Translations under genes and position numbers: made by a program | The notes under the pieces: generated by a model | Seen by the model: the letters and a program-made list of their open reading frames with translations, nothing else | Told to the model about the DNA's origin: nothing | Database searches by the model: none | DNA from: Candidatus Omnitrophota bacterium | GTDB taxonomy: Bacteria > Omnitrophota > Omnitrophia > Omnitrophales > Aquincolibacteriaceae | Length of the DNA stretch: 64,000 bases | Reading direction: 5' to 3' | Assembly: GCA_043718225.1 (NCBI GenBank) | Contig: JAYSWD010000001.1 | Span: 49,092-113,091, forward strand | Shown: piece after piece, positions 2,293 to 62,829 of the stretch | How positions within the stretch are numbered: position 1 is the first letter of the stretch | How the letters are laid out: every line of letters starts with the position of its first letter

Positions 2293-2461
2293 AAAAATAA
2301 ATTTAAATCAATAAACTGATCAAAAAGTTTTAGACGCAAGGCTTGAGCGAGCGACCGCGGAGCCGTAGTAAAACCTACGGCGCACAAGGAAGCGAAGCTC
2401 GTAACGCAGCGGATAAGCTTTTTCATCGGTTTAAACAAAGAACAAAAAGGATCTAACTCAC

Positions 2462-3967: not shown

Positions 3968-4144
3968 CATGACGGCTTCATTTGCGGAGCGAAGCGAGCG
4001 CAAATGAAATTGCCGGAATGTCATCCCAGAAACGCGTAGCGTTATCTGGGATCCAGACAAATGAAAAATTGGATTCCCGCCGGAGTTTACCCTCGAGCGA
4101 CATCGGGGGCGGGAATGACAGAAAGATTTTACAGTATCATTTTT

Positions 4145-4168
4145 GCTCTGCGCCTTTGGCGCAACCGC
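4145..4168 (+). repeat. Family A short hairpin repeat (CTCTG-RGC-loop-GCY-CAACCGC)
   Basis: gctctgcgcctttggcgcaaccgc. Confidence 0.8.
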
Positions 4169-4245
4169 CGAAAGCAAAAAAGATTTTTTTGAAAACCGCA
4201 TGTTGAGTTTATCGAGACATGCAAAATGTGAACGAGGAAAAGAAA

Positions 4246-4661: not shown

Positions 4662-4668
4662 TATTTAG

Positions 4669-4692
4669 GCTCTGGGCGCTTCGCCCAACTGC
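4669..4692 (+). repeat. Family A repeat
   Basis: gctctgggcgcttcgcccaactgc. Confidence 0.8.
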
Positions 4693-4725
4693 TAACAATA
4701 ATTACATGCCGAGCTTTATCGAGGC

Positions 4726-5817: not shown

Positions 5818-6731
5818 TGCTGATCGGCGAAGCTTTATCTCTAGGAGAAAACCGGCTGAAACTTGCTGGCGTCCTTGAGGCTAGGACTGAATGCGAGCAT
5901 ATGTTGATGGAGCTGATGAACGCGAATCGTTCAGAAGTGCTGTTTTATATTAGCTCTGAGCAAAGCTCAACCGCGCCGTTTCATTTTGCCTCTGAGCCTT
6001 CGGCTCAAACGGCGAAGAGCAATTTGACGGCGCAGCAAGAGAAACAGTTTTTTGATTGGATTGCGAGCAGGGGAAAAAGAATTCCTTTGGCGTATTTGCT
6101 GGGCGATACGTTTTTTCATTCTTTGAAATTAAAAGTGGGACCGGGATGTTTGATTCCGCGGCCTGAAACAGAACGGTTGGTGGAAGCGGCGCTTAAGATT
6201 ATCCGCGAAGATAAATTGAATGCCCCGGTAATCATGGATATTGGAACGGGATCGGGCGCGATTGCGCTTGCGATTTTAGCCGCCGTGCCTGAGGCTAAAG
6301 CGGTGATGGTTGACTTTTCTGCGGAAGCTTTGAAGATTGCCCGTGAGAATACTGCGGAACTTGGATTTTTAGGCCGCGCTGAGTTAATTCACTCAGATTT
6401 ATATTTAAATATACCGTCTGATTTGAAAGTTAATTTGATTTTGTCGAATCCGCCCTATTTAACGGCCGAAGATTTGGCCGGCCTGCAGCCGGAAGTGGTT
6501 TTTGAGCCGCGAATGGCATTAGACGGCGGGAAAGACGGCTTGGATTTTTACCGGAAAATGATTCCGGATGCCGCAAAGTTTTTAAAGCCGCAAGGCTGGT
6601 TGGGATTTGAAGTCGGCGCCGGACAGGCCCAGGCAGTTAGCGCAGAGTTAAAGAGAAACGGTTATGAAGATCTGAGAATTATTAAAGATCATCAAGATAT
6701 AGAGCGCATAGTTTTAGCCCGAAAAGGTTGA
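5817..6731 (+). CDS. prmC: release factor glutamine N5-methyltransferase PrmC/HemK, carrying an in-frame ~20 aa insertion made of two Family A repeat copies
   Basis: NPPY motif (LSNPPYL), the SAM-binding MDIGTGSGAIA, and PLAYLLG..LIPRPETE. It aligns collinearly with E. coli PrmC except for the insertion SSTAPFHFASEPSAQTAKSN. Confidence 0.85.
   Translation: MLIGEALSLGENRLKLAGVLEARTECEHMLMELMNANRSEVLFYISSEQSSTAPFHFASEPSAQTAKSNLTAQQEKQFFDWIASRGKRIPLAYLLGDTFFHSLKLKVGPGCLIPRPETERLVEAALKIIREDKLNAPVIMDIGTGSGAIALAILAAVPEAKAVMVDFSAEALKIARENTAELGFLGRAELIHSDLYLNIPSDLKVNLILSNPPYLTAEDLAGLQPEVVFEPRMALDGGKDGLDFYRKMIPDAAKFLKPQGWLGFEVGAGQAQAVSAELKRNGYEDLRIIKDHQDIERIVLARKG
5943..5964 (+). repeat. Family A repeat, in-frame inside prmC
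   Basis: gctctgagcaaagctcaaccgc. Confidence 0.8.
5979..6004 (+). repeat. Family A repeat, in-frame inside prmC
   Basis: cctctgagccttcggctcaaacggcg. Confidence 0.75.
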
Positions 6732-8043: not shown

Positions 8044-8067
8044 ACGCGAAGCGTTTTCTTTTACTCG

Positions 8068-8091
8068 GCTCTGCGCTTTTGGCGTAACCGC
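8068..8091 (+). repeat. Family A repeat
   Basis: gctctgcgcttttggcgtaaccgc. Confidence 0.75.
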
Positions 8092-8150
8092 GCAAAACTA
8101 GCAAATTGTAGATTAGTAGTTAGTAAGTAGTAATAAAGGGAGAAAAGAAA

Positions 8151-8475: not shown

Positions 8476-9237
8476 ATGTTAGAAATTGATATCGTCACGT
8501 TGTTTCCGGATTTTTTCGAATCTCCGTTGAAACAGTCGCTTTTGAAGCGCGCGCAGGCCGACGGATTGATTAAAATCCGCGTGCATAATCTGCGCGATTG
8601 GGCGCGCGATAAGCATCACAAAACGGATGATTCGCCTTTTGGCGGCGGCCCCGGAATGGTGTTTAAGATCGAGCCAATGCATGAGTGCTTGAAAGAAATC
8701 GGTGCGGGAGCATGGAAAATTTTGCTCGATGCGCATGGCGAATTGCTGAAGCCAAAGTTGGCTGAAAGCCTCGCGCAGAAAAAGAAAATTGTTTTGATCG
8801 CGGGCCATTACGAAGGTATGGACTACCGCATTAAAGAACACCTGGTCGACCAAATGGTTTCGGTCGGTGACTTTATTACGATGGGCGGCGAAGCCCCGGC
8901 CTTGTGTTTGATTGAAGCGCTGACAAGGTTTGTTCCGGACGTGCTCGGAAACGAAGAATCGACGGCAGAAGAGAGTTTTAGCGGCGGGATGCTTGAATAT
9001 CCGCAGTATACGCGGCCGCGCGAATATAACGGTTGGGAAGTTCCCGAAGTTTTGTTTTCGGGAAATCATGCGAAGATAAAAAAGTGGCGTAATGAGACGG
9101 CGGAGAAATTGACGCGGAAGCACAGACCAGACTTACTACATTCTGCTTCTGCGCTGCCGGCGCAACCAGCGGATGAAGAGGGCAACAAAACCGTGAAGGT
9201 TAAGCTGAAAAGAGAAAGAGCTTCGAAAAAGAAATAA
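8476..9237 (+). CDS. trmD: tRNA (guanine37-N1)-methyltransferase
   Basis: SPOUT TrmD motifs (IVTLFPDFF, SPFGGGPGMV, LIAGHYEGMDYR). I chose the ATG at 8476 (MLEIDIV); the upstream in-frame stretch is Family A repeat sequence. The C-terminal tail contains a Family A copy in-frame. Confidence 0.85.
   Translation: MLEIDIVTLFPDFFESPLKQSLLKRAQADGLIKIRVHNLRDWARDKHHKTDDSPFGGGPGMVFKIEPMHECLKEIGAGAWKILLDAHGELLKPKLAESLAQKKKIVLIAGHYEGMDYRIKEHLVDQMVSVGDFITMGGEAPALCLIEALTRFVPDVLGNEESTAEESFSGGMLEYPQYTRPREYNGWEVPEVLFSGNHAKIKKWRNETAEKLTRKHRPDLLHSASALPAQPADEEGNKTVKVKLKRERASKKK
9147..9170 (+). repeat. Family A variant, in-frame in the trmD 3' end
   Basis: cttctgcgctgccggcgcaaccagc. Confidence 0.6.
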
Positions 9238-9669: not shown

Positions 9670-9690
9670 GAGCCAAGAGACTTCCTTTTT

Positions 9691-9713
9691 GCTCTGGGCT
9701 TTTGCCCAACCGC
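9691..9713 (+). repeat. Family A repeat
   Basis: gctctgggcttttgcccaaccgc. Confidence 0.8.
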
Positions 9714-9764
9714 ATGAGCTGAGCATGAGCAACTGCGGATCATTGGAAATGCTCGGATTAAGTT

Positions 9765-18562: not shown

Positions 18563-18666
18563 AAAATGCTTGCTCACTGCGTTGCAAACAGCGCTCCCTT
18601 GTGCGACGTATTACCGCATACGCCTCCGCGGTCGCTTGTTTACGCCTTGTGCCCAAGCCTTTTTGA
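18563..18666 (+). repeat. Family B ~105 nt structured terminator-associated repeat (A5...CTGC.TCGTT...CCTTGTGCG...CCTCCGCGG...CGCCTTG...T5GA)
   Basis: Copy after pabB, with the conserved blocks tgcgttgcaaa, cccttgtgcg, gtattaccgcatacgcctccgcgg and cctttttga. Confidence 0.75.
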
Positions 18667-21320: not shown

Positions 21321-21426
21321 AAAAAACATCATCTGCTTCGTTCCAAACTTCGCAATCTGCGTGCTGCGTATTACCGCATACGCCTCCTTAATTGCTCGTT
21401 TGCGCCTTGCATCTAATGCTTTTTGA
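21321..21426 (+). repeat. Family B repeat
   Basis: Copy after purH: ctgcttcgttccaaa ... gcgtattaccgcatacgcctcc ... tgcgccttgca ... ctttttga. Confidence 0.75.
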
Positions 21427-24095: not shown

Positions 24096-24210
24096 AAATT
24101 CATTGAAAACTTTCCGTCTGCGTTGTTGCGAACTGCGCTTTGTCGTGCGGCGTATTACCGCAGACGCCTCCTCCCGCACTTATTCGCGCCCAGCATCTAG
24201 GGATTTTTGA
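24096..24210 (+). repeat. Family B repeat
   Basis: First of two tandem copies after mnmE: tctgcgttgttgcgaa ... gcggcgtattaccgcagacgcctcc ... atttttga. Confidence 0.7.
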
Positions 24211-24225
24211 ATGAATCGCGAGTGA

Positions 24226-24330
24226 TTCGGCATTATCTGCGGTGTTGCGCCCATCGCTTCTTTACTCGGCGTATTGCCCCGATATGCCTCCGCAGAAGGT
24301 CGAGCGCGCCTTGCCGCTGAACTTTTTTGA
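24226..24330 (+). repeat. Family B repeat
   Basis: Second tandem copy after mnmE: tctgcggtgttgcgc ... ggcgtattgcccc ... cctccgc ... gcgcgccttgcc ... cttttttga. Confidence 0.65.
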
Positions 24331-24411: not shown

Positions 24412-26151
24412 ATGAACTCCGACGAACAAATTACAAAAGACCAGCTGTTTTCACGCATTAAGCAGCGGAAGCAGCTGCTTGTTAAAAGACAAATGGTTGT
24501 GGCGGTGCTAGCCCTTGTTTTTGGCGGCCTGTTTGCAATGAAGGTTTTTGAACCGCTCGAATTTTTTTTCCTGGATAGCTGGCTTTCGCGGGCGCAGTGG
24601 AAAACAGAAACGAGCGTTGTTTTGGTGCCGATTACGGAAAAAAGCATTCAGCTCATCGGTAAATTGCCCTGGCCTCCTTCCCAGTATTCCGCAGTCCTGG
24701 AACTTTTAGCTGCTTGGAATGCGCGTGCTGTTTATATTGACCGTCATTTTGCGGAAAATTGGCCTGCCGAAGAATGGCAGCCGCTTTTAAAAATATTGCT
24801 AAAACGCAAAATCCCTGTTTTTTTTGCTTCCGGTGAATCATCCGGAGGGAAGACGATGAACTATCGAAATCCGCTTTCAGATTCAAAACCAGACACGGTT
24901 GATCTGCCGAAACAAATCAGTAAATATGCATTTTTTGGACACCGGGAATTAATGTCAGGGAAAGATCATGTTTTTCGCTTTTGGCAGCCCTGGATTAAAG
25001 ACAGCCGGGGGTTGACCCATCATTTAGCAGCATTGACCATGCTTATGGATCTCCGTTTTAATTTCAAGGACCGGGCGCTCGTGCGGTCATCAAGAAAAGA
25101 AATGCGGTTAATTCCCTGGAACCGTGTTCGCTTCGAAACTTGGCCACGTGTCGAGTTTTCGGATTTAATGCAAAACTATGTTCCCGCGCGCGACGGAATT
25201 CCTTCGCTGCTACCCACCACTTTATTTAATGACAAAGTTATTTTTATCGGCCAGGTGGATGAACCGCACGCAGGCTCAGGGTTAACGCCATGGAGAGAAG
25301 CCGTTGCTCCGATTGAAACCATGGCTGCAATTTATGACGGCTTGGGACGGCCGGGGTGGAACCTGAGTGTGATGGCGCCTTTTTGGGGATGCATTGTGTT
25401 TTTTATTTTGGTTGCGGGCCTGTTGATTGCATGGGTCGGAGTTTGCGCCGGAATGCGCTTTTGGCTGGGTTGGTTTGGACTGCTTTTTCTCGTGGCTTTG
25501 ACATGGGGCAGTTTTGTATTTTTCAAAACATGGTTTCCTTTTGCCGGGGTATTTTTGTTTTTATTAATTGCGGGTGCGGTTCTTTTTGCTTTTGAATCGA
25601 TTTATGCAGCGGGCGAACGCTCGGCATTATTTCACTTTGCGACGCGCGACGGATTAACAAATATTTATTCCATCCGTCATTTTCGTTTGATAATGAATCA
25701 AGTTACCCGTGAAGCGGCGATGAGATCCGAAGCATTGGCGGTTATTTTAATCGACATCGATTATTTCAAAAAAATCAATGACAGCTACGGCCATGCGGCG
25801 GGAGATAGGGTGATAAAAAAAACGGCGGAAGTGATCGAGGCGTCAATCAGGCAAAAAAGGACCTTTAAAGACGTTGATTTTCTTGCGCGGTATGGTGGTG
25901 AAGAATTTATCATTTTAATGCGCCGATCTTCGCTTGAAAATGCGGGCTTGGTTGCTGAGCGGATTCGAAACGCAATCGGACAAACGCATTTTGAGTGGCA
26001 GCTTAAGCGCGTTTTTGTAACTGTAAGTTTGGGCGTCGCCGTATTACATGAAGGTGAAAATGTTCCCGACCCCATGGTGCATCGAGCCGACAAGGCGCTT
26101 TATCGCGCCAAAGAAGCCGGGCGTAATTGTGTTTGTGTCGAGGAAGTGTAA
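24412..26151 (+). CDS. membrane diguanylate cyclase: CHASE2-like periplasmic sensor, TM bundle and GGDEF domain
   Basis: The N-terminal TM and ~250 aa periplasmic region are followed by three or four TM segments and a GGDEF domain (RYGGEEFIIL). Confidence 0.75.
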   Translation: MNSDEQITKDQLFSRIKQRKQLLVKRQMVVAVLALVFGGLFAMKVFEPLEFFFLDSWLSRAQWKTETSVVLVPITEKSIQLIGKLPWPPSQYSAVLELLAAWNARAVYIDRHFAENWPAEEWQPLLKILLKRKIPVFFASGESSGGKTMNYRNPLSDSKPDTVDLPKQISKYAFFGHRELMSGKDHVFRFWQPWIKDSRGLTHHLAALTMLMDLRFNFKDRALVRSSRKEMRLIPWNRVRFETWPRVEFSDLMQNYVPARDGIPSLLPTTLFNDKVIFIGQVDEPHAGSGLTPWREAVAPIETMAAIYDGLGRPGWNLSVMAPFWGCIVFFILVAGLLIAWVGVCAGMRFWLGWFGLLFLVALTWGSFVFFKTWFPFAGVFLFLLIAGAVLFAFESIYAAGERSALFHFATRDGLTNIYSIRHFRLIMNQVTREAAMRSEALAVILIDIDYFKKINDSYGHAAGDRVIKKTAEVIEASIRQKRTFKDVDFLARYGGEEFIILMRRSSLENAGLVAERIRNAIGQTHFEWQLKRVFVTVSLGVAVLHEGENVPDPMVHRADKALYRAKEAGRNCVCVEEV

Positions 26152-26184: not shown

Positions 26185-27960
26185 ATGATCAATTTAGACG
26201 AGCCCCTTACAACCGACCAGCTCTTTAGCCGTACCAAGCAGCGTCAGAATCTTTTAATTAAACGCCAAATTTTAACGTCAGTTTGCGCGCTGGTTTTCGG
26301 TGTGTTGCTTTTTTCGCGAACACTTGAACCGTTAGAGACAGCGCTTCTCGATGGATGGCTTTCGCGCACGCAGACAGAGGGCGCGCCGAAAATTGTTCTC
26401 ATTTCTGTTTCCGGCAAAAGCATCAGTCAAATCGGCAAATGGCCCTGGCCGCCTTTTCAGCATGCCGTGATGCTTGAATTACTTCAGCGCTTTGGAGCGC
26501 GTTCGGTTTATATTGACCATCCTTTTTCTGAAGCGTGGCGGGAAGAAGAGCAAAAACCGCTTACAACCGTTCTTGCCCGGCATCAAATGCCGGTTTTTTT
26601 TGCCGCGAATTACAGTCCTCGTTTTGAAAACGCCGGTCCCGGCCTTACGATTTTAAAGCAAGAAGGCCCGGCAAAAATGGAATGGGTGCGGCCTGTTCCG
26701 GAAATCGCGGAACTTGCGGCCTTCGGACACCGGCAGCTCAAGCCCGAACAAGACAGGGTTTTTCGCTTTTGGCAGCCGTGGCTGGAAGGACAGGAAGTTT
26801 CTTACCCACTTGCCGCGGTTAAGATGAACATGGAAACGCAAGCGAACCTTCGCGACAGCTCGCTGCTCAATTCTAACGAAACAGGAAAGCGTTTAATTCC
26901 CTGGAACCAAGCGCGTTATAAAAGTTGGCTGCGAATTGAATTTTCAGATTTAGTGGAAAGTTACCTGGCGATGCGCGAAGGCATGCGCCCCGCGATAACA
27001 GCCGAGATCTTTAAAGGCCGCGATGCTTTTATCGGCCTCGCGGATGAAGCCCAAGCGTTTTCAGGTTTGACACCGTGGCATCAAACCGTTTTTCCTTTTG
27101 AAGTTATGGCGGCCATTTTTGACGGGTTAAATCATCCGGGCCACAACATACGCCGCGTGGCGGGCGCGTATGCTCCGCTTATTTTTCTGCTTGCCGCGGC
27201 CGGAGTGCTTATTTTTTGCACAGGCAGAGCGGTTGGCCCTTTTTTTTGGATGGTTTGGGCAGGATTACTTTTCGGCGTGGTTTTAGCCTGGGCTATTTTC
27301 GTTTTTTTATTGATTTGGCTGCCTTGCGCGGCAGTGCTTTTATTTCTTTTAGTTTCAGGCGCGGCTATTTTTGCTTTTGACGCTTTGCATGCAAGACAGC
27401 AGCATTCGGCTCTTTTTCACCTCGCCACGCGCGATGGATTAACCAATTTATATGTGATCCGGCATTTTCGCGTCATCATGAATCAACTGACGCGCGAGGC
27501 CTGTGCTCGCAAAGAGCCGATTGCGGTTATTCTCATGGACATCGATCATTTCAAAATAATCAACGACACTTATGGCCACCCCGCGGGGGACATGGTGTTG
27601 AAAAAAACCGCACAGGCGATACAGGCCGCGGTCCGTCAAAAACGAATGTTTAAAGACATCGATTTTGTCGCGCGTTATGGCGGAGAAGAATTTATTGTCC
27701 TTGTCCGGCGCAATTCGCTTGAAATGGTATCTTCTAGGATCGCGGAACGGATTCGAAAGGCGATTCAGGAAACTCATTATGAATGGGAAGGAGAGCGCAT
27801 TTTTGTGACCGCCAGTTTTGGTGTTGCGGTTTTAAATGAAGGTGAAAATATTCCCGATGCCATGGTTCACCGCGCGGATAAAGCGCTTTATCTCGCGAAG
27901 CAAAATGGCCGTAACCGGGTTTGCACTGAGAACGATGTCAGGGGTGTCAAGGAAGCCTGA
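26185..27960 (+). CDS. membrane diguanylate cyclase, tandem paralog of the preceding gene
   Basis: It has the same architecture and is collinear with 24412-26151 (DQLFSRTKQR.., RYGGEEFIVL). I judge roughly 45% identity by eye. Confidence 0.75.
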   Translation: MINLDEPLTTDQLFSRTKQRQNLLIKRQILTSVCALVFGVLLFSRTLEPLETALLDGWLSRTQTEGAPKIVLISVSGKSISQIGKWPWPPFQHAVMLELLQRFGARSVYIDHPFSEAWREEEQKPLTTVLARHQMPVFFAANYSPRFENAGPGLTILKQEGPAKMEWVRPVPEIAELAAFGHRQLKPEQDRVFRFWQPWLEGQEVSYPLAAVKMNMETQANLRDSSLLNSNETGKRLIPWNQARYKSWLRIEFSDLVESYLAMREGMRPAITAEIFKGRDAFIGLADEAQAFSGLTPWHQTVFPFEVMAAIFDGLNHPGHNIRRVAGAYAPLIFLLAAAGVLIFCTGRAVGPFFWMVWAGLLFGVVLAWAIFVFLLIWLPCAAVLLFLLVSGAAIFAFDALHARQQHSALFHLATRDGLTNLYVIRHFRVIMNQLTREACARKEPIAVILMDIDHFKIINDTYGHPAGDMVLKKTAQAIQAAVRQKRMFKDIDFVARYGGEEFIVLVRRNSLEMVSSRIAERIRKAIQETHYEWEGERIFVTASFGVAVLNEGENIPDAMVHRADKALYLAKQNGRNRVCTENDVRGVKEA

Positions 27961-28022: not shown

Positions 28023-28109
28023 GGAGAGGTGGCAGAGTGGTTGAATGCGCTAGTCTCGAAAACTGGTATGCCCGCAAGGGTATCGGGGGTTCGAATCCCC
28101 CCCTCTCCG
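28023..28109 (+). tRNA. tRNA-Ser (anticodon CGA), class II with a long variable arm
   Basis: Acceptor GGAGAGG/CCTCTCC, anticodon loop CTCGAAA, T-arm GGGGGTTCGAATCCCCC, discriminator G. CCA is not encoded. Confidence 0.85.
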
Positions 28110-28230
28110 GTTCTAAATATGCCCTTGCCTGCTGCGTTACGCTCCCTCAAATTTTCTCAACGTACATTTTAAGGTAAGCCTTAAAAATTTTCGGTCGCAA
28201 GCCTTGCATTCAAGGGCATCTTTAGAACCG
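28110..28230 (+). repeat. Family B-like variant directly after tRNA-Ser, enclosed by a 19 bp inverted repeat (ggttctaaatatgcccttg / caagggcatctttagaacc)
   Basis: cctgctgcgttacgctccct ... cgcaagccttgcattca, inside a long stem. Confidence 0.6.
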
Positions 28231-28236
28231 CTAAAT

Positions 28237-28407
28237 GGAGTGGGGATTCGAAGTGAGGAGCCCAAACCATCAAGTTGACCGAAGGAAAAATCTGACTTAA
28301 TGTCAGGTTTTGAAAGAGGGAAGACAAGGGGCGACGAGTGGCCGACCTGGAAAGAGTGCGGCGACTAGCCGACACGAATGGAGGGCGCCGTTAATCCCCC
28401 TCTCTCC
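28237..28407 (+). repeat. Family C ~170 nt tRNA-downstream element whose 3' end near-duplicates the tRNA-Ser T-arm and acceptor 3' half
   Basis: Shares aaatctgacttaatgtcag and agtgcggcgactagccgacacgaatgga with the copy at 34901-35068. It ends aatccccctctctccg, compared with aatcccccctctccg in the tRNA. Confidence 0.6.
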
Positions 28408-28508
28408 GTATCGATTCCGCTAATTGAAATCATGCTTGCTAGAACAGAGTGGCGTTAATTCCCTGGCAGATGCTTTTATTTTATTTGAAGAGGGAACGCT
28501 CTCACGTT

Positions 28509-33139: not shown

Positions 33140-33245
33140 AAAAAAGTCATTTGCCGCGTTGCAAACCTCGCTTCCTCCCGCGATGTATTACCGAATACAC
33201 CTTGGTCGGGCGCTTGTTTGCGCCTTGCAACTGATCTTTTTTGAT
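33140..33245 (+). repeat. Family B repeat
   Basis: Copy after recR: ttgccgcgttgcaaa ... cttcctcccgcgatgtattaccgaatacacc ... tgcgccttgca ... cttttttga. Confidence 0.75.
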
Positions 33246-33855: not shown

Positions 33856-34650
33856 ATGAAGTCTTTTGAAGGTAAGACAGTTTTAATTACGGGCGCGTCT
33901 TCGGGTATCGGAAAAGTTTTCGCGGAAAAGTTCGCGGCATCCAAAGCCAAAATTTTATTGACTGCGCGCCGCGAAGACAGGCTCCATCAATTATCCAAAG
34001 ATTTATCCGCGCGTTACGGTGTTGAAGTTCATTATTTAAAAGCTGATTTGTGCGCCGCGGACGCGCCGCGGCAGATTTATGAATGGTCGAAATCCGGAAA
34101 TTTTAAAGTGGACCTGCTCGTGAATAACGCGGGCTTCGGACGTTACGGCCGCTTTGACGAAATGCCGGCGGAGGAACTGCAGGCGATGATGCAGGTGAAT
34201 ATTCAGTCGCTTGTCTGGCTGACGCGCCTTTATTTGCCCGAAATTAAATCACGCAAGGGCGGTATTATTCAAATTGCTTCTACAGCAGCCTTTCAGCCGC
34301 TGCCGTATCTCGCGCTGTATGCTGCGACGAAATCATTCGTTAAAAGTTTTTCCGAAGCGATTTGGTCCGAAAACCGCGACGTGCGGATTTTCTGTTTATG
34401 TCCCGGCAACACGCAGTCGGAGTTTCACGATCTTGCGGGAATTCATCAGAAAAAAGTTTTTTTGCGCGCTTCGACTGAAGACCTTGTCCAGTACGGGCTC
34501 AATAAATTTTTAAATTCAAACAACCCCACAGGAGTTCACGGATGGGCCAATGCCGGCGTGGCCTTTTCCAACCGCTTGATTCATACGCGGCTTGGGCTTT
34601 GGGTTGCGCGTAAAATCTATGAAATCCGCACGGAAAATAAGCAGAAATAG
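33856..34650 (+). CDS. short-chain dehydrogenase/reductase (SDR)
   Basis: TGASSGIG Rossmann motif, NNAG and a YxxxK-type catalytic region. Confidence 0.85.
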   Translation: MKSFEGKTVLITGASSGIGKVFAEKFAASKAKILLTARREDRLHQLSKDLSARYGVEVHYLKADLCAADAPRQIYEWSKSGNFKVDLLVNNAGFGRYGRFDEMPAEELQAMMQVNIQSLVWLTRLYLPEIKSRKGGIIQIASTAAFQPLPYLALYAATKSFVKSFSEAIWSENRDVRIFCLCPGNTQSEFHDLAGIHQKKVFLRASTEDLVQYGLNKFLNSNNPTGVHGWANAGVAFSNRLIHTRLGLWVARKIYEIRTENKQK

Positions 34651-34702
34651 AGCTTAAACATTGATTCTGAGACTCGTCTTGATTAGAATACCGCTCTCTT
34701 GC

Positions 34703-34773
34703 GCGGGTATTGCTTAATGGTAAAGCGCTAGCCTTCCAAGCTAGTTATGAGGGTTCGATTCCCTCTACCCGCT
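34703..34773 (+). tRNA. tRNA-Gly (anticodon TCC)
   Basis: Acceptor GCGGGTA/TACCCGC, anticodon loop CTTCCAA, T-arm GAGGGTTCGATTCCCTC. Confidence 0.8.
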
Positions 34774-34897
34774 CTCGGTTTCTAAAAAGAACCGTCTGCT
34801 GCGTTATCACCTTCGCTCCCTTGTGCGGAGTAATTAGCATTACACCTCCGCGATCGCTCGGCGACGCCTTGCATTCAGGCTCTTTTGAGAAACCGAG
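34774..34897 (+). repeat. Family B repeat directly after tRNA-Gly, enclosed by a 20 bp inverted repeat (ctcggtttctaaaaagaaccg / ggctcttttgagaaaccgag)
   Basis: tctgctgcgttatcaccttcgctcccttgtgcgg ... cacctccgcg ... cgccttgcattca. Confidence 0.7.
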
Positions 34898-34900
34898 CGG

Positions 34901-35068
34901 ATAACGGGGGAATCGAACGGGAGGCGCGATTAGTTTTAATGATTTAGTATGAAAAAATCTGACTTAATGTCAGATTTTTTTGTGATAAATGCGTTATGAG
35001 CGCCGGGAGGCGAGTCGAAGTAAGTGCGGCGACTAGCCGGCACGAATGAAGACCGCTCGATTCCTTGT
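34901..35068 (+). repeat. Family C element downstream of tRNA-Gly
   Basis: Blocks gggggaatcgaac, aaaatctgacttaatgtcagatttttt and agtgcggcgactagccggcacgaatgaag. It ends ..cgattcc. Confidence 0.6.
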
Positions 35069-35151
35069 GTTTTTAATCACTTAAAAAATGATCTAACCCA
35101 TTCATATTAAATGACTTCCAGCTTGAATACAAGGCCTGCCTGAGCCATTCT

Positions 35152-35179
35152 TTGACTTTTGACCTGAAAAACCTATAAT
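35152..35179 (+). promoter_or_regulatory. Sigma70-like promoter of the nusA-infB operon (TTGACT-16-TATAAT)
   Basis: TTGACT at 35152 and TATAAT at 35174. Confidence 0.45.
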
Positions 35180-35246
35180 AACCCCGTTTTGACGCCCGAA
35201 AACTACTAGGGCGAACGCAGTCATTTTAATGTTTTAGATTTTGATA

Positions 35247-35278
35247 AGAAGTGGGCTTTGACCCACTTCTTTTTTTTC
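35247..35278 (+). terminator. Leader hairpin plus T-run between the promoter and nusA (attenuator-like)
   Basis: agaagtgggctttgacccacttcttttttttt: a 9 bp stem followed by T8, 43 nt before the nusA ATG. Confidence 0.5.
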
Positions 35279-35320
35279 CGCTGAAAGTGTTTTGTTCGCT
35301 TTGCGAACCGGGGAGCATGT

Positions 35321-36586
35321 ATGTCGCAGGAGCTTTTGTCATCGTTGGAATATATCGAAAAAGAAAAGGGCGTTTCGCGCGAAGTCCTTTTTGACGCGAT
35401 TCGTCACGCCTTAATTTCCGCTTTACGTAAATCTTTTCCACAGTACGGCGAAGATTTTGACGTGCAAATCGATCCTCAAACGATGCGCATTCAATTATTG
35501 CGCGCCGGAAAACCTTTTCAAGATCCGCATTTCGGGCGCATCGCCGCACAAACCGCGAAGCAGGTCATCATTCAGAAAATCCGCGAAGCACAGCGGGATT
35601 CTATTTTTGATGAATTTACCGCGAAGCAAGGCGATATCGTGAACGGTACCGTTCATCGCGTGGACGCGCGCGCCATTGTTGTGGACTTCGGAAAAACTGA
35701 AGGAATTCTGCCTGCCCGTGAAATGTCCCCGGCGGATCAATACCGCCAAGGCAATGTCATCCGCGCTTTTGTGCTCGAAGTGAATCGTACGCCGCGCGGC
35801 CCGGAAATCATTCTTTCTCGCACGCATCCTGATTTCGTAAAAAAACTTTTTGAGCTCGAAGTTCCCGAAATCGCGGACAAACTTGTTTTGATTAAGGGCG
35901 TCGCGCGTGAGGCGGGCTCGCGCAGCAAGGTCGCCGTTGTTTCTTCGGATCCCAAAATCGACTGCGTTGGTTCCTGTGTGGGCGTACGCGGGCAGCGCGT
36001 GAAGAATATCGTGCGCGAACTGGAAGGCGAAAAAATTGATATTGTTCCGTACTCCGAAAAAATCGAAGAATTTATTAAAAGCGCGATGTCGCCGGCGGAA
36101 ATTTTTGAAATGAAACTTGACCGTCAGCGGCTAGTTGCCGACTTGCTTGTTAAAGATGACCAGCTTTCGCTGGCGATTGGAAAGCGGGGACAAAATGTGC
36201 GCCTTGCTTCCAAACTTGTGGGATGGACGATTGATGTTCGCAGCGAAGGCCAGCGCGCGGCTCTGGACGTGCTGCCCGGAATTGATGCCGCGGTGATTCA
36301 AACATTGAAGGCCGGCGGAATTTTATCTATCAAAGATGTTTTGAAGTCATCTCCCGAACAGCTGTCGCAGATTGCCGGGCTCGACTTGGCAACCGCGCAA
36401 AAAATTTTACAAGCCGCGGAAGCAACCAAGGCCGTAAAAGTTGAACCGGAAAAAGAAATACCAGTCGCAACTGAAAATATTGATGCGGTATCCGAAAATG
36501 AAAGTCCCGCTGTGGACAGTCAGCCCGAAGCAGAGAAGCCGTCTCATTCTTCCTCTGAGCCCTTGGCTCAACCGGATAAGGACTAA
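35321..36586 (+). CDS. nusA: transcription termination/antitermination factor NusA, C-terminal tail ending in a Family A repeat
   Basis: NusA N-terminal, S1 and two KH domains. The tail ..SSEPLAQPDKD is encoded by the CTCTGAGC..GCTCAACCGG element. Confidence 0.9.
   Translation: MSQELLSSLEYIEKEKGVSREVLFDAIRHALISALRKSFPQYGEDFDVQIDPQTMRIQLLRAGKPFQDPHFGRIAAQTAKQVIIQKIREAQRDSIFDEFTAKQGDIVNGTVHRVDARAIVVDFGKTEGILPAREMSPADQYRQGNVIRAFVLEVNRTPRGPEIILSRTHPDFVKKLFELEVPEIADKLVLIKGVAREAGSRSKVAVVSSDPKIDCVGSCVGVRGQRVKNIVRELEGEKIDIVPYSEKIEEFIKSAMSPAEIFEMKLDRQRLVADLLVKDDQLSLAIGKRGQNVRLASKLVGWTIDVRSEGQRAALDVLPGIDAAVIQTLKAGGILSIKDVLKSSPEQLSQIAGLDLATAQKILQAAEATKAVKVEPEKEIPVATENIDAVSENESPAVDSQPEAEKPSHSSSEPLAQPDKD
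36553..36576 (+). repeat. Family A repeat, in the nusA C-terminal tail
   Basis: cctctgagcccttggctcaaccgg. Confidence 0.75.
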
Positions 36587-38856: not shown

Positions 38857-38957
38857 TTCGCTGAAAAATGTTCATCTGCTTCGTCAGTCGCTTCGCTTCC
38901 TTGTGCGGGTATTGCCGCATACGCCTCCGCGGGCGCTCGCGACTTCCTCGCGTCTAA
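38854..38957 (+). repeat. Family B repeat
   Basis: Copy after infB: atctgcttcgtcag ... cttccttgtgcgggtattgccgcatacgcctccgcggg ... tttttttga. Confidence 0.75.
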
Positions 38958-39002
38958 ATTTTTTTGAGCGAATTTAATATTTTTTGAATTTAGGAATTAT
39001 TT

Positions 39003-40142: not shown

Positions 40143-41132
40143 ATGCGGATTTTTAAGGTAACGGCGTCATTTAAAAAAATTACCAAACGGCCGCTTGTTC
40201 TTGCGCTCGGAAATTTTGACGGTATTCACCGGGGGCATCAAAAGCTTTTAGATTATGTTGTCAGCCAGGCAAAGAAACTGCATGGTTGCGCGGCAGTGTT
40301 TACTTTTCAAGAGCATCCGCAAGCGATTTTGCATCCGGAACATGCGCCCGAAAGCCTGCAAGCGCTTGAGCAAAAACTGGCGCTTTTCCGAGCGCGCGGA
40401 ATCGAGATTTCTTTTTTACAGAATTTTGATTCGCGTTTTTCGATGCTTTCGGCGGAAGAGTTTGTAAAAAAAATTCTTGTTAAGCAGCTTGGCATTCGCG
40501 AGATTTGCCTCGGTTATAACGCGCGTTTTGGCCGCGGGCGGGAAGGCGATGCAGATCTTCTCCGTAAGCTGGGCAAAGAATGCGGTTTTAAGGTTTTTCA
40601 GGCGCGGCCTGTCGCTTGGCGGGGAGTGCCGGTTTCAAGTACGGCGGTCAGAAAAGCCGTACATGCGGGGAAAATGAACCTCGCGGCGCAATTATTGGGG
40701 CGGCCGTGGAGCGTAGCGGGTATCATCAAGCGCGGAAGTGCGCGCGGGGAAAAACTGGGGTTTGCTACGGCGAACATGGATTTAAATAAATATGCACGCC
40801 CGGCTTTTGGAGTTTATGCCGTCCATGTGCTGCTACATAATATTGCCTCTGCGCCTAAGGCGCAACCGGCGCAGCGTCGTTCAGCCTCTGGGCTCACCCA
40901 ACCGGCATTTTGCAACGGTGTGGCGAATTTTGGATTGAGGCCTACTTTTGGAGGAACGGTAAAGCCTGTTTTGGAAACCCATCTTTTTAATTTTAAGAAA
41001 AACATTTACGGAAAAAAAATAGAAGTATTTTTTGTGAAGCGCCTGAGAAATGAAAAAAAATTTACCTCCAAAGAAGAGCTCGCGAAACAAATTCAAAAAG
41101 ATATTCGTGCCGCGAAGGTCGCGTTGAAATAA
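40143..41132 (+). CDS. ribF: bifunctional riboflavin kinase / FMN adenylyltransferase, with a ~20 aa in-frame insertion made of two Family A repeats
   Basis: N-terminal FMNAT (GNFDGIHRGHQ) and C-terminal riboflavin kinase (GVYAV..GVANFGLRPTF). The insertion ASAPKAQPAQRRSASGLTQPA sits in a loop that is absent from E. coli RibF. Confidence 0.85.
   Translation: MRIFKVTASFKKITKRPLVLALGNFDGIHRGHQKLLDYVVSQAKKLHGCAAVFTFQEHPQAILHPEHAPESLQALEQKLALFRARGIEISFLQNFDSRFSMLSAEEFVKKILVKQLGIREICLGYNARFGRGREGDADLLRKLGKECGFKVFQARPVAWRGVPVSSTAVRKAVHAGKMNLAAQLLGRPWSVAGIIKRGSARGEKLGFATANMDLNKYARPAFGVYAVHVLLHNIASAPKAQPAQRRSASGLTQPAFCNGVANFGLRPTFGGTVKPVLETHLFNFKKNIYGKKIEVFFVKRLRNEKKFTSKEELAKQIQKDIRAAKVALK
40846..40870 (+). 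repeat. Family A repeat, in-frame inside ribF
   Basis: gcctctgcgcctaaggcgcaaccggc. Confidence 0.75.
40884..40906 (+). repeat. Family A repeat, in-frame inside ribF
   Basis: gcctctgggctcacccaaccggc. Confidence 0.75.
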
Positions 41133-45870: not shown

Positions 45871-45963
45871 GCAAGTTTCTGCGCATAATAAACTGCGTTT
45901 AGTGCTTAGGAATTTCAAGCATCTTTCCGATAATATGAGAGCTCTATCTCAATTGTTGTTTTG

Positions 45964-45989
45964 GTTCTGCGCTTTTGGCGCAACCACGG
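45964..45989 (+). repeat. Family A repeat
   Basis: gttctgcgcttttggcgcaaccacgg. Confidence 0.7.
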
Positions 45990-46022
45990 TAAAATTTCTA
46001 AAATAACTTTATATTGGCTTAA

Positions 46023-48456: not shown

Positions 48457-48564
48457 GAAAAAGGGCTTCTGCGTCGTTGCAAAAATCTCACTTCCTTGTG
48501 CGGCGCACGTTTCTAGTACGCCTCCGCGGGCGTTCGTTGGCGCCTTGCATAACCACCTTTTTGA
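48457..48564 (+). repeat. Family B repeat
   Basis: Copy after ftsK: ttctgcgtcgttgcaaaa ... cttccttgtgcgg ... tacgcctccgcggg ... gcgccttgca ... cctttttga. Confidence 0.75.
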
Positions 48565-48829: not shown

Positions 48830-48990
48830 GCAACAATGTCCCGTCCAACTTGTTTTTAAGCCCGACACAGCACCGAGGTATATTCTTATATCGCCTATAG
48901 CGATTTAAATTTTAACGAAGGGCCAGGTCCGTCCGACTTGTTTTTAAACCGGACACGGCACGGAGCATTGTTTTCAAATGGCTTTAAGCC
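48830..48990 (+). promoter_or_regulatory. Two ~40 nt direct repeats plus short palindromes, ~200-330 bp upstream of phoB
   Basis: Repeat 1 (48838-48877) is gtcccgtccaacttgtttttaagcccgacacagcaccgagg. Repeat 2 (48926-48966) is gtccgtccgacttgtttttaaaccggacacggcacggagc. The palindromes atcgcctatagcgat and aatggctttaagccatt lie alongside, and the pair is flanked by caacaatg / cattgtt. Confidence 0.4.
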
Positions 48991-49162
48991 ATTTGAATTA
49001 AAAGGAAGCGCCAGTGTCAAGAACGTGTAAATTCATTTTCCGCCTCTCGCAATCAAAGGCGCACTTGTGTATGATTCACCGAGGAAGAAGCCGGTTTTAA
49101 GAAATTAAGTGATAGTAATAAAGCTTAAACCTTATCACTTATAACTTATTACCAAAGGACCC

Positions 49163-61068: not shown

Positions 61069-61680
61069 TTGATGAAAATCATAAAAATAACCACGCTTAT
61101 TGAATCTGGGCCTTTTTCCAAATCAGATATCTTGGAAAAAATTCTTAAAGAAATTTATTCCTCCATCGAGAAAATTGAACACCCAAAAGGATCTGGTAAA
61201 TTTATTTTACATGACCAATGCGGAAAGAAGCGGGGCGAAGGTAATGGCGTTAAACCCATTAAGCTATTGTGCATGAAATTTTTAAAGCAGGCGGGATGGG
61301 AGTTGGAAACCAGAGAGCCGGTATCCTCTGAAAAGCACCCTGGCCCTATCGATGCCGCACTGAAAGTGGCGGGAAGATTATTTTGTTTTGAATGGGAAAC
61401 TGGAAATATTTCGTCTAGCCATAGAGCCTTAAATAAAATGGCAATAGGCATTTTGAAAGGGCGACTTATAGGTGGAGTATTAGTTTTGCCATCAAGGGCA
61501 ATGTATCATTACCTTACCGATCGAGTTGGAAATTTTCAAGAAATAGAGCCTTACTTTCTTTTGTGGAAATCGTTATCTGTTAAAGAGGGTTATCTCGCGG
61601 TAATTGAAATTGAACATGACGGAGTGAGTAAAAAAGTAAAACGAATACCCAAAGGGACAGATGGGCGAGCGTTAAATTAA
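61069..61680 (+). CDS. Type II restriction endonuclease, BamHI-like
   Basis: Collinear similarity to R.BamHI as I remember it, including PID...FEWETGNISSSHRALNKM (the D/E.E catalytic triad), YLTDRVGNFQEIEPYF and IPKGTDG. GC is about 35% against roughly 50% for the window. Confidence 0.7.
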   Translation: MMKIIKITTLIESGPFSKSDILEKILKEIYSSIEKIEHPKGSGKFILHDQCGKKRGEGNGVKPIKLLCMKFLKQAGWELETREPVSSEKHPGPIDAALKVAGRLFCFEWETGNISSSHRALNKMAIGILKGRLIGGVLVLPSRAMYHYLTDRVGNFQEIEPYFLLWKSLSVKEGYLAVIEIEHDGVSKKVKRIPKGTDGRALN

Positions 61681-62829
61681 AAGCAAATTTTCTTTTTTGT
61701 TTTGTTCTATTCGTCTAATGATGGGGAAGCAGTCTTCGATTTCGCACCCAATCCACCGACGCTTTAGTCTTTCTGCTGCATAGTAAGTGGTCCCACCGCC
61801 ACCAAATGGATCAAAAACCAAATCATTTTCCTGAGTCGCAATTTTTAAGACGCGCTCAAGCAATTTGACAGATAATTCATTTGCTGGACGAGCTTTGTTT
61901 TTTTTGTGACGCACAGGAGGAATATCATCCCACACATCTGTAAGATTTAATCCCAACGGATTTAAAAATTTTCTATGCCCGCCATAATCTTTTATATCGC
62001 CACCGCAATGTCTGCATTTTGGAATGGGGACGCGCAGATGATTAAAAGTTTGAGGCTTGCCCTTGGTGAAATAGAGCAAACTGTAGTGCGAGGGGTACAA
62101 ACGGCCCGGAATGGGAAGGGAAAGCTTGATGTTGACGGCGATCCAGTGGCGAAATGTTAATTGTTTAATGAGAAACGAAGAGTAGTAAACATTCCATTTT
62201 GGGATGTTGTATACAAAAAGACTTCCTCCTGGCTTTAATATGCGAACGCATTCTTCCAGCCACTGATATGACCACTGTAAATATTTTTCTTCCGCTAGAT
62301 TGTCGTTAACTTTCGCACCATAGTTTTTATTTAAATTAAATGGCGGGTCAGCAAAAATGCAGTCGATGGATTCAGTGTCAATTTTAGGGAGCAGGTCTAA
62401 ACAGTCGGCTTTATACAATTTTCCCAAAGAGCTTTCATAGATAGGTTGCAATGACTTCTCTTCTTGGATTTCTCTTTCATAGTTATAGACAGAGAAACTT
62501 TCCCGCAAAACAGAGGCAGCTTCTGATGGGTGCTCGTGAAAAATTTTGTAAATATCTTTTGGTAATTTTCCAGTAGCCAGGCGCAGACGATCGATGTCTT
62601 GTTTGAAGTATTTAGATACTTTTTTAAGAAGTTTGTCTGAAGGCGGAACAGAGCCCTTTTCAACTCGGCTTAGATAAGCGTGGTCGACTTGAATTTTTTC
62701 TGAAAACTTTCGAATGCTGAGCTTTTGATTCAATCTAATTTTTTTGATTACATTTTGAGGAGCCAAGATTTCTCCAGGTGTTGACTTGATTTGTCCACAC
62801 ATTGTTGCATTTTTAAGACGACCTTGCAA
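61672..62829 (-). CDS. DNA methyltransferase (beta-class amino-MTase, N4-cytosine or N6-adenine) with an N-terminal XRE-type HTH
   Basis: Motif IV DPPF (IFADPPFNLN) precedes motif I FDPFGGGGTT, which marks the beta class. The N-terminal IKKIRLNQKLSIRKFSEKIQVDHAYLSRVEKG is an HTH. The gene is convergent with the R gene and overlaps it. Confidence 0.75.
   Translation of the reverse strand: MQGRLKNATMCGQIKSTPGEILAPQNVIKKIRLNQKLSIRKFSEKIQVDHAYLSRVEKGSVPPSDKLLKKVSKYFKQDIDRLRLATGKLPKDIYKIFHEHPSEAASVLRESFSVYNYEREIQEEKSLQPIYESSLGKLYKADCLDLLPKIDTESIDCIFADPPFNLNKNYGAKVNDNLAEEKYLQWSYQWLEECVRILKPGGSLFVYNIPKWNVYYSSFLIKQLTFRHWIAVNIKLSLPIPGRLYPSHYSLLYFTKGKPQTFNHLRVPIPKCRHCGGDIKDYGGHRKFLNPLGLNLTDVWDDIPPVRHKKNKARPANELSVKLLERVLKIATQENDLVFDPFGGGGTTYYAAERLKRRWIGCEIEDCFPIIRRIEQNKKENLLLI

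Follow-up and report, generated by a model that had tools for sequence, protein, structure and literature searches.

The 64,000-nucleotide stretch of DNA analysed here (the window) comes from a Candidatus Omnitrophota bacterium (GenBank assembly GCA_043718225.1, contig JAYSWD010000001.1, positions 49,092 to 113,091) and carries, directly behind a tRNA-Ser gene, about 300 bp that we read as one intact copy of a small insertion unit without protein genes. We give an even chance to this reading in its full form, in which the unit is non-autonomous, inserts in the T-loop of the tRNA gene and relies on a recombinase provided in trans. We consider it probably a novel miniature mobile element and not what remains of a large island. 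The unit has a recurring anatomy, lies exclusively next to tRNA genes, has ends matched to each tRNA and a covarying core, and it occurs at filled and empty sites, in tandem arrays and as decaying copies. We infer that it is, or recently was, both mobile and non-autonomous. In the coordinates of the window, the parts of the unit at tRNA-Ser are as follows:

28023-28109, + strand: intact tRNA-Ser(CGA) gene (ARAGORN; Rfam tRNA model, 59.4 bits).
28094-28109, + strand: direct repeat 1 (DR1), AATCCCCCCCTCTCCG, the last 16 nt of tRNA-Ser (sequence match).
28110-28229, + strand: long hairpin of Family B (B2 subtype) with the arms GTTCTAAATATGCCCTTG and CAAGGGCATCTTTAGAAC (RNAfold).
28235-28414, + strand: the whole Family C element, made up of X', core and DR2 (full-length cmsearch match, 146.6 bits, E = 2e-37).
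28242-28253, + strand: X', GGGGATTCGAAG, the reverse complement of TTCGAATCCCC in tRNA-Ser (28090-28100).
28286-28311, + strand: central hairpin of the C core, AAAAATCTGAC TTAAT GTCAGGTTTT, resembling a terminator.
28340-28389, + strand: the C core's long 3' hairpin, which has purine-rich internal loops and GACUA as its apical loop (RNAalifold helices 3 and 4).
28393-28408, + strand: direct repeat 2 (DR2), AATCCCCCTCTCTCCG, a 15/16 ungapped match to DR1.

This layout agrees with the original prediction, which described a Family B hairpin followed by a Family C element of ~170 nt ending in a copy of the tRNA 3' end at 17 of 19 positions. The count was about right: apart from the ungapped match, 18 of 19 positions of the DR2 copy agree when the preceding GTT is added with a 2-nt gap (GTT[CG]AATCC). 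DR1 runs from the 3' part of the T-loop through the 3' strands of the T-stem and the acceptor stem to the discriminator, and DR1 and DR2 are the sole two matches in the window at up to two mismatches. Dinucleotide shuffles predict 0.02 matches and gave two or more in none of 100 trials, so the repeat is real and non-random. X' forms the 5' strand of a helix (P1) whose partner is AATCCCC of DR2; the first 7 nt of DR2 thus make up the 3' strand of P1 and the remainder is a largely unpaired tail, while GGAG (28237-28240) can in addition pair with CTCC (28404-28407). The Family B hairpin is terminator-like and represents the tRNA-proximal part of the inserted unit. In the integrated state, the order is direct repeat, hairpin, inverted T-loop copy, a structured segment of ~150 nt and again the direct repeat. 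There is no gene between DR1 and DR2, and the open reading frames (ORFs) found there are all spurious. Three features of the family go beyond the original prediction: a second C copy in the window, behind tRNA-Gly; the reverse complementarity of the start of each C copy to the T-loop and T-stem of its tRNA; and the conserved fold of the C core.

To follow the family beyond this locus, a covariance model was built from nine Family C copies and used to scan 218 kb, consisting of the window and 11 related loci. NusA and RodA homologues place the organism in Candidatus Omnitrophota, and through them the syntenic loci were taken from relatives with 79-90% identical NusA; the sample comprises three tRNA species and about 0.2 Mb of the clade, and all sequences stem from metagenome assemblies. 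The scan yielded 11 full or partial C copies, two in the window and nine in related Candidatus Omnitrophota assemblies. All 11 lie just 3' of tRNA-Ser, tRNA-Gly or tRNA-Pro and on the tRNA strand, and the scan of the 218 kb found no C copy away from a tRNA gene. Both conditions under which the original prediction would have failed thus turned out in its favour: each of the 11 C copies adjoins a tRNA gene, and every full copy retains at least the T-loop part of the tRNA sequence. At three tRNA species, and in five or more related genomes, an intact tRNA precedes a second copy of its 3' end that starts in the T-loop; the repeat pattern occurs in at least six independent assemblies.

Outside these loci, an exact-pattern scan for the core in a genome collection with one genome per species returned a single true match, L001, a C copy 3' of tRNA-Pro(TGG) in a metagenome-assembled genome of an uncultured bacterium. 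The same pattern gave only two chance matches in the Joint Genome Institute (JGI) metagenome collection (L002 and L003, in a high-GC response-regulator gene), and three viral scans of IMG/VR returned nothing or chance 16-mers. BLAST against phage and plasmid collections found no match to the element. In a scan of the window with Rfam 15 at gathering thresholds only the two tRNAs pass, E-value searches of Rfam with three C copies gave inconsistent weak matches and no family, and literature searches found no earlier account of an element of this kind. Family C is missing from a more distant Omnitrophota locus (L039, RodA 62% identical). As far as seen in the loci sampled, the unit is confined to a genus- or family-level clade of Candidatus Omnitrophota. 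At L039 (11170-11700, and downstream to 21083), a tRNA-Pro is cut after the anticodon arm and followed by an island of >9 kb with HTH_17, SNase and Prim-Pol/PriCT_1/AAA_25 genes, an ordinary integrative element without a Family C core.

The second copy of the window is found at its only other tRNA gene:

34703-34774, + strand: tRNA-Gly(TCC) gene (ARAGORN; Rfam).
34775-34897, + strand: Family B (B1 subtype) hairpin of the tRNA-Gly unit (repeat search; RNAfold).
34901-35080, + strand: second Family C copy, 3' of tRNA-Gly (covariance model, 159.9 bits).

Its X' is GGGGGAATCGAAC at 34906-18 and its central hairpin lies at 34953-79. The tRNA copy has shrunk to TCGATTCC at 35057-64, past which the tail has decayed. 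The entire module of tRNA-Gly promoter, tRNA-Gly, B, C and repeat (window 34650-35320) is located between a short-chain dehydrogenase/reductase (SDR) gene and nusA; relative to the window it stands on the opposite strand in L004, L006, L010, L013 and L014 and on the same strand in L016. The distribution of orientations, which is independent of NusA similarity, suggests that the module has flipped repeatedly.

Both ends of the unit follow the tRNA at which it resides. Full C copies end in a direct copy of 7-26 nt of their own tRNA that starts in the T-loop, at positions ~55-58, and in the longest cases reaches the discriminator or beyond; where the tail survives, the copy from T-loop to discriminator comprises up to 16-26 nt. 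The individual repeats and their matches are:

tRNA-Ser, window: AATCCCCC(C/T)CTCTCCG, 15/16.
tRNA-Ser, L010: AATCCCTCCCTCTCCG, 16/16.
tRNA-Gly, L006: TCGATTCCCTCTACCCGCTCCAGTC, 25/25.
tRNA-Gly, L016: T-loop to discriminator, 19/19.
tRNA-Pro, L001: CGAATCCTGCTAC, 13/13.
tRNA-Pro, L020: TCAAATCCTGCCA(T/A)CCCGAT, 19/20.

Identity halts exactly at the discriminator at tRNA-Ser (window and L010) and at tRNA-Gly of L016, and at tRNA-Pro of L020 it halts at the tRNA end called by ARAGORN, within one base of the discriminator; the tRNA-Gly repeat of L006 ends at CCA+GTC. At the other side, each C copy opens with an X' of 8-11 nt, the reverse complement of its own tRNA's T-loop together with the bases that begin the 3' strand of the T-stem, and X' tracks the local T-loop variant in every copy (TTCGAAT/ATTCGAA, TTCGATT/AATCGAA, TTCAAAT/ATTTGAA). 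A terminator-like hairpin always separates the tRNA from X', namely B1 or B2 at tRNA-Ser and tRNA-Gly and a plain hairpin at tRNA-Pro. In contrast to the ends, the cores do not sort by tRNA: similarity between loci is 56-72% independent of tRNA type, with 72% between the cores of L020-Pro and L016-Gly and 57% between those of L001-Pro and L020-Pro. This points to movement of the unit between tRNA species.

The 3' ends of the tRNA genes themselves provide a further clue. An encoded CCA is absent from tRNA-Ser and tRNA-Gly of the window (28107-28112 and 34771-34776) and present in the orthologues of L006, L010 and L013. In L016, CCA survives only in DR2, where it is followed by a flank resembling the tRNA-Gly end of L006, and the tRNA-proximal copy has none. 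This arrangement fits a distal repeat that is the displaced original tRNA 3' end, and insertion of the unit seems to accompany loss of the encoded CCA.

Comparison of orthologous sites indicates that the unit is gained or lost as a block and behaves as an insertion. At the site between RodA, tRNA-Pro and a desaturase gene, the unit is present in L020 and L001 and absent in L022 and L018, the latter having the tRNA inverted. The tRNA-Ser locus, for which the original prediction had proposed a comparison with relatives, exists in both states: L010 has a copy, and L006 has a tRNA-Ser without the unit, yet carries one at its tRNA-Gly. L014 contains an extra block of ~290 nt (B1, X' and core) between the tRNA-Gly 3' end and the B2 flank; the near-identical L010 and L013 are without it and the sequences re-align past the block. 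Tandem arrays are represented by two full copies in L014 and by a full copy plus a stub at tRNA-Ser of L010. Truncated copies retain only the 3' half (L010-Gly), only X' (L013) or only the 5' half (L004), and the DR2 tails are lost in L014, in L010-Gly and in the Gly copy of the window. Such arrays and truncated copies are typical of dispensable, selfish DNA. In L004, which is the closest relative, the C copy at tRNA-Gly gives way behind its central hairpin to unrelated sequence (1-165) encoding the C-terminus of an unidentified ORF (...SIEMENAVRGF*), where the contig ends; a repeat or mobile element may have broken the assembly at this point.

The core folds in a conserved and strand-specific manner. 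RNAalifold on nine copies gave P1 (X' with the start of DR2), the central hairpin and the long 3' hairpin with its purine-rich internal loops, which contains the most conserved segment, AGTGCGGCGACTAGCCGACACGAATGGAG. In the core, 95.2% of the cells are paired, compared with 81% after shuffling and about 40% with slid partners. Both sides have changed at 19 of 35 core pairs versus 2-6 in the slid controls, and none of 500 shuffles reached the observed covariation score. Compensatory changes are especially frequent in helices 3 and 4, where 11 of 16 pairs have changed on both sides (e.g. GCGGC/GCCG versus GCCGC/GCGG), and the central hairpin has compensatory variants such as CATGAC/GTCATG in L001 and GCGGAC/GTCCGC in L016. 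Among the core pairs there are 15 G·U as opposed to one A·C, an excess that favours the tRNA-sense strand as the folding strand. The C core hence shows the compensatory helices and the G·U strand bias by which structured RNAs are recognised. The DR2 tail does not form a conserved acceptor-like helix and is unpaired beyond P1 in most copies. No sigma-70-type promoter of its own is predicted for C, so any C RNA would stem from read-through from the tRNA promoter. A tRNA-like element or minihelix, a transfer-messenger RNA (tmRNA) and a pseudo-tRNA were considered and rejected as identities of C, as no tRNA model matches C and ARAGORN finds no tmRNA.

Family B consists of long hairpins of ~90-120 nt with the conserved core CTGCTGCGTTA...GCCTTGCAT and copy-specific A-run/T-run arms ending in TTTTTGA, and its sites in the window are 2293-2395 (minus strand), 18581-18666, 21341-21426, 24125-24210, 24245-24330, 28130-28215, 33158-33244, 34803-34888, 38882-38967 and 48479-48564. 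The copies fall into two subtypes. They directly follow a stop codon or a tRNA and for the most part share the strand of the gene. An alignment of 11 copies has compensatory changes at 15 of 22 predicted pairs, and the family looks like an elaborate intrinsic-terminator or 3'-untranslated-region RNA family outside Rfam.

Because the repeat geometry resembles tRNA integration of the T-loop class, we favour a non-autonomous unit with a recombinase in trans. Such a unit would consist of a terminator-type hairpin (Family B, or a plain one at tRNA-Pro) and the ~150-nt core folded on the tRNA-sense strand, and it would be seated in the T-loop in such a way that the tRNA retains a full 3' end (DR1) and the second copy (DR2) comes to lie at the far side. 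Insertion would proceed, as in phage Ms6, by site-specific recombination with a crossover within the 7-nt T-loop. By pairing X' with the T-loop portion of the repeat, the folded single strand could present a duplex copy of the target, which would explain both the conserved strand-specific structure and the tracking of the T-loop by X'.

Several findings weigh against this explanation. Neither the unit nor the 64-kb window (Pfam, ORFs scanned) nor the fetched clade loci (called genes) contain a recombinase, transposase, reverse transcriptase or TnpB-like gene, and no larger autonomous relative bearing the C core turned up among the fetched loci, in the genome, metagenome and viral pattern scans or in the phage and plasmid BLAST searches. 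No circular or excised form was seen. A classical double-strand integrase reaction requires neither a covarying fold nor a G·U strand bias, and an element bearing its own tRNA 3' end would be expected to be tied to one tRNA, while the core family is present at three. Furthermore, the DR2 tail is identical at 19 of 20 positions between L006 and L016, whereas the unpaired core agrees at only 50 of 87; the conserved tail may therefore have a function beyond that of a footprint. The attL/attR reading of the original prediction is partly supported: the intact tRNA, the displaced repeat and the filled and empty sites agree with it, and no integrase was found in the unit, among the scanned ORFs of the window or among the called genes of the clade loci. 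Among 40 window ORFs, Pfam searches detected nothing but housekeeping genes and a BamHI-type restriction-modification pair, the latter formed by a BamHI-family restriction endonuclease gene beside an opposite-strand gene for a helix-turn-helix (HTH)-fused N4/N6 DNA methylase (61069-62829).

Three known classes of small or guided elements were also tried and rejected. A miniature inverted-repeat transposable element (MITE) does not fit, as its inverted ends, here X' and the beginning of DR2, would have to be constant and instead vary with the tRNA, and as the duplication measures 13-26 nt and is not of fixed length. A palindrome-associated transposable element (PATE) or omega-RNA of the IS200/IS605 type was dismissed in view of the long direct repeat, the absence of TnpA/TnpB from the window and the lack of an Rfam match. 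Membership in a CRISPR-associated transposon (CAST) was discarded, since no Cas12k, TnpB or Tn7 genes or transposon ends are nearby.

How do other explanations compare with a trans-mobilised unit? The foremost of them, which we still judge to be unlikely, is a resident, non-mobile non-coding RNA gene that acts on or with the neighbouring tRNA or tRNA gene. It might serve as a guide (its 3' tail equals the tRNA after GGTT), as an antisense/decoy pair (X' against the T-loop, the tail as a mimic of the tRNA 3' end) or as a processing or termination device, with ends that co-evolve with the tRNA through selection or templated correction inside the long quasi-palindrome. The strong conservation of structure, the near-identical tails of L006 and L016 and the synteny at tRNA-Gly in all seven genomes sampled are in line with this idea, and CAST elements offer a precedent for a separate guide that leads to tRNA genes (PMC11656645). 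In addition, the Ser copies of the window and L010 share derived features, yet their X' and tail match the tRNA variant of their own genome. However, the copies are dispensable: orthologous Pro and Ser sites can be without one, and those of L010, L013 and L004 are truncated. In addition, three copies (L014, L010-Gly and the window Gly copy) have lost the tail, and tandem duplicates occur. An effector gene nearby, a predicted promoter, a conserved acceptor-like helix in the tail and a matching Rfam family are likewise missing. Two simpler views are rejected. The original prediction had offered a deletion remnant or a tiny non-autonomous element, and it is the latter that holds. For a remnant, in which attL and attR of a large tRNA-integrated island or prophage were joined after loss of cargo and integrase, one can point to the tRNA with its 3'-end repeat and to the fact that tRNA genes are island targets in this phylum (the tRNA-Pro island of L039). 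Nevertheless, the enclosed family is conserved at three tRNA species in at least five genomes and at a roughly constant size of ~200-300 bp, with compensatory changes that would not be expected of random leftover DNA; deletions arising separately would not arrive at one and the same structured 150 nt, which makes a remnant very improbable. A chance resemblance or low-complexity coincidence could invoke the richness of the repeat in C and T, but the shuffling result and the recurrence of the same relation at Gly and Pro tRNAs of different sequence reduce its probability to practically nil.

The remaining alternatives let a nucleic acid find the target, and to each of them we assign a rather small chance. 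In an RNA-mediated retro-insertion, the unit would be co-transcribed with the tRNA and X' would be an internal guide to the near-universal T-loop, with a reverse transcriptase and a nuclease supplied in trans. The element RNA would be reverse-transcribed with a nick in the T-loop serving as primer, and another nick ~19 nt downstream, just past the discriminator, would produce the target-site duplication; both repeat copies would then derive from the target and retargeting to any tRNA would be automatic. This would account well for one core family at Ser, Gly and Pro with perfectly matched repeats, for cores that do not cluster by tRNA type and for a repeat length that varies from 13 to 26 nt, with identity running as far as the discriminator in Ser and Gly-L016 and to within one base of it in Pro-L020. 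The folded strand is, moreover, the transcribed tRNA-sense strand according to the G·U to A·C ratio, and as no separate promoter is predicted, RNA would likely arise by transcription reading through from the tRNA promoter. On the other hand, no fetched locus contains a reverse transcriptase, a terminator-like hairpin separates the tRNA from C, and in L016 the flanks of DR1 and DR2 differ, with CCA in DR2 only, for which an element-borne DR1 is a better explanation than a simple duplication. To our knowledge, group II introns are the only bacterial target-primed system of the non-LTR (non-long-terminal-repeat) kind, which counts against this route as well. The other variant, likewise of low probability, is a protein-less element of ~300 nt in the form of a single-stranded (RNA or DNA) hairpin or circle, which would find the T-loop by base-pairing of X', integrate there and hop between tRNA genes with matching ends being re-created. 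If this X'-guided variant were true, it would constitute a minimal nucleic-acid-guided system for integration at tRNA genes, so far undescribed in bacteria.

Apart from the unit, the window has other repeats. Directly 5' of tRNA-Ser lie two tandem CHASE2-GGDEF diguanylate cyclase paralogues (24412-26151 and 26185-27960) with ~73% DNA identity, as compared with a single copy in the relatives. A hairpin repeat resembling repetitive extragenic palindromes (REP), CTCTG(C/G)GC-N4-GC(G/C)CAACCGC, has >15 intergenic copies in the window, including 4140-4173, 4664-4697, 5984-6017, 8063-8096, 9141-9174, 9686-9719, 36547-36580, 40841-40874 and 45959-45992, and is also found in the relative L020. Two tandem repeats of 86-88 nt (48841-49014, 74% identical) are located 5' of a response-regulator and histidine-kinase gene pair.

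If the tRNA-linked unit is mobile, it belongs to the smallest tRNA-targeting insertion elements known to us and would be a compact natural example of retargetable site-specific insertion, as well as a way into the mobile DNA of the uncultured phylum Omnitrophota. Its unusual trait is the conserved strand-specific fold flanked by two copies of the target, one inverted and one direct. With such a fold, the nucleic acid itself may present or recognise the integration site, and this may explain why several tRNA species are served. Should it instead be a resident RNA, it would represent an undescribed class of tRNA-linked RNAs with both ends tracking the neighbouring tRNA.

Among known systems, integration of the T-loop class by tyrosine integrases, as in phage Ms6 and the islands collected in Islander, comes close in leaving the tRNA intact, with a displaced copy of its 3' end behind it. 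The attP core of Ms6 comprises 26 nt from the T-loop to tRNA-Ala's 3' end, strand exchange takes place within the 7-nt T-loop, and changes made to the attP core can retarget the phage (PMC1762012). In tRNA islands in general, the ends are marked by the regenerated target and the displaced fragment (PMC4383910). The unit shares with Ms6-type integration an identity block from the 7-nt T-loop to the tRNA 3' end (16-26 nt as against 26 nt), and with the islands the filled and empty sites and the tandem accretion. In contrast to such islands, it measures only ~200-300 bp, contains no integrase or other gene, has a core with a strand-specific fold and carries X', an inverted T-loop copy ~150 nt 5' of the displaced repeat. 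Ordinary tRNA-specific integrative elements also differ from the unit, in which a single core family is found at Ser, Gly and Pro tRNAs and its ends fit the tRNA in each case. We regard the C-containing unit as a new form of tRNA-targeted insertion, absent from Rfam, which an integrase may mediate.

A guided route to tRNA genes is known from CAST elements, which home next to them via a delocalized CRISPR RNA (crRNA) guide (PMC11656645). Like a CAST homing crRNA or a TnpB omega-RNA, the unit has a conserved scaffold, and the sequence at the 3' end of this scaffold is the same as that of the tRNA gene immediately behind GGTT in the T-arm. Unlike these guides, part of the presumptive guide of C pairs with X', a distance of ~50-145 nt separates the element from its target, and there is no sequence or Rfam similarity.

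A kinship of another kind exists with the cis-mobilizable elements (CIMEs) known from work on the integrative and conjugative elements (ICEs) of Streptococcus, which are kilobases of decayed ICE sequence between direct repeats of the attachment-site (att) type and are mobilised in trans. The unit, too, is flanked by att-type direct repeats, is free of recombination genes and can stand in tandem with related units; as distinct from CIMEs, it is a compact, conserved and structured core of ~150 nt, for which no autonomous partner was identified among the loci fetched and the collections scanned. Finally, the attP hairpin of CTX phage, which uses XerCD, and integron attC sites integrate as folded single strands whose arms rebuild the target duplex. 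The unit departs from them in its target, which is the tRNA T-loop and not dif or attI, and in having no phage genes, Rep protein or IntI, and a single-stranded DNA form of it is purely hypothetical. Nevertheless, it shares with both of them the order of repeats in the integrated state (direct, inverted, a structured loop of ~150 nt, direct), two arms that can pair into a duplex copy of the chromosomal target, a structure that is conserved above the sequence, and the formation of tandem arrays.

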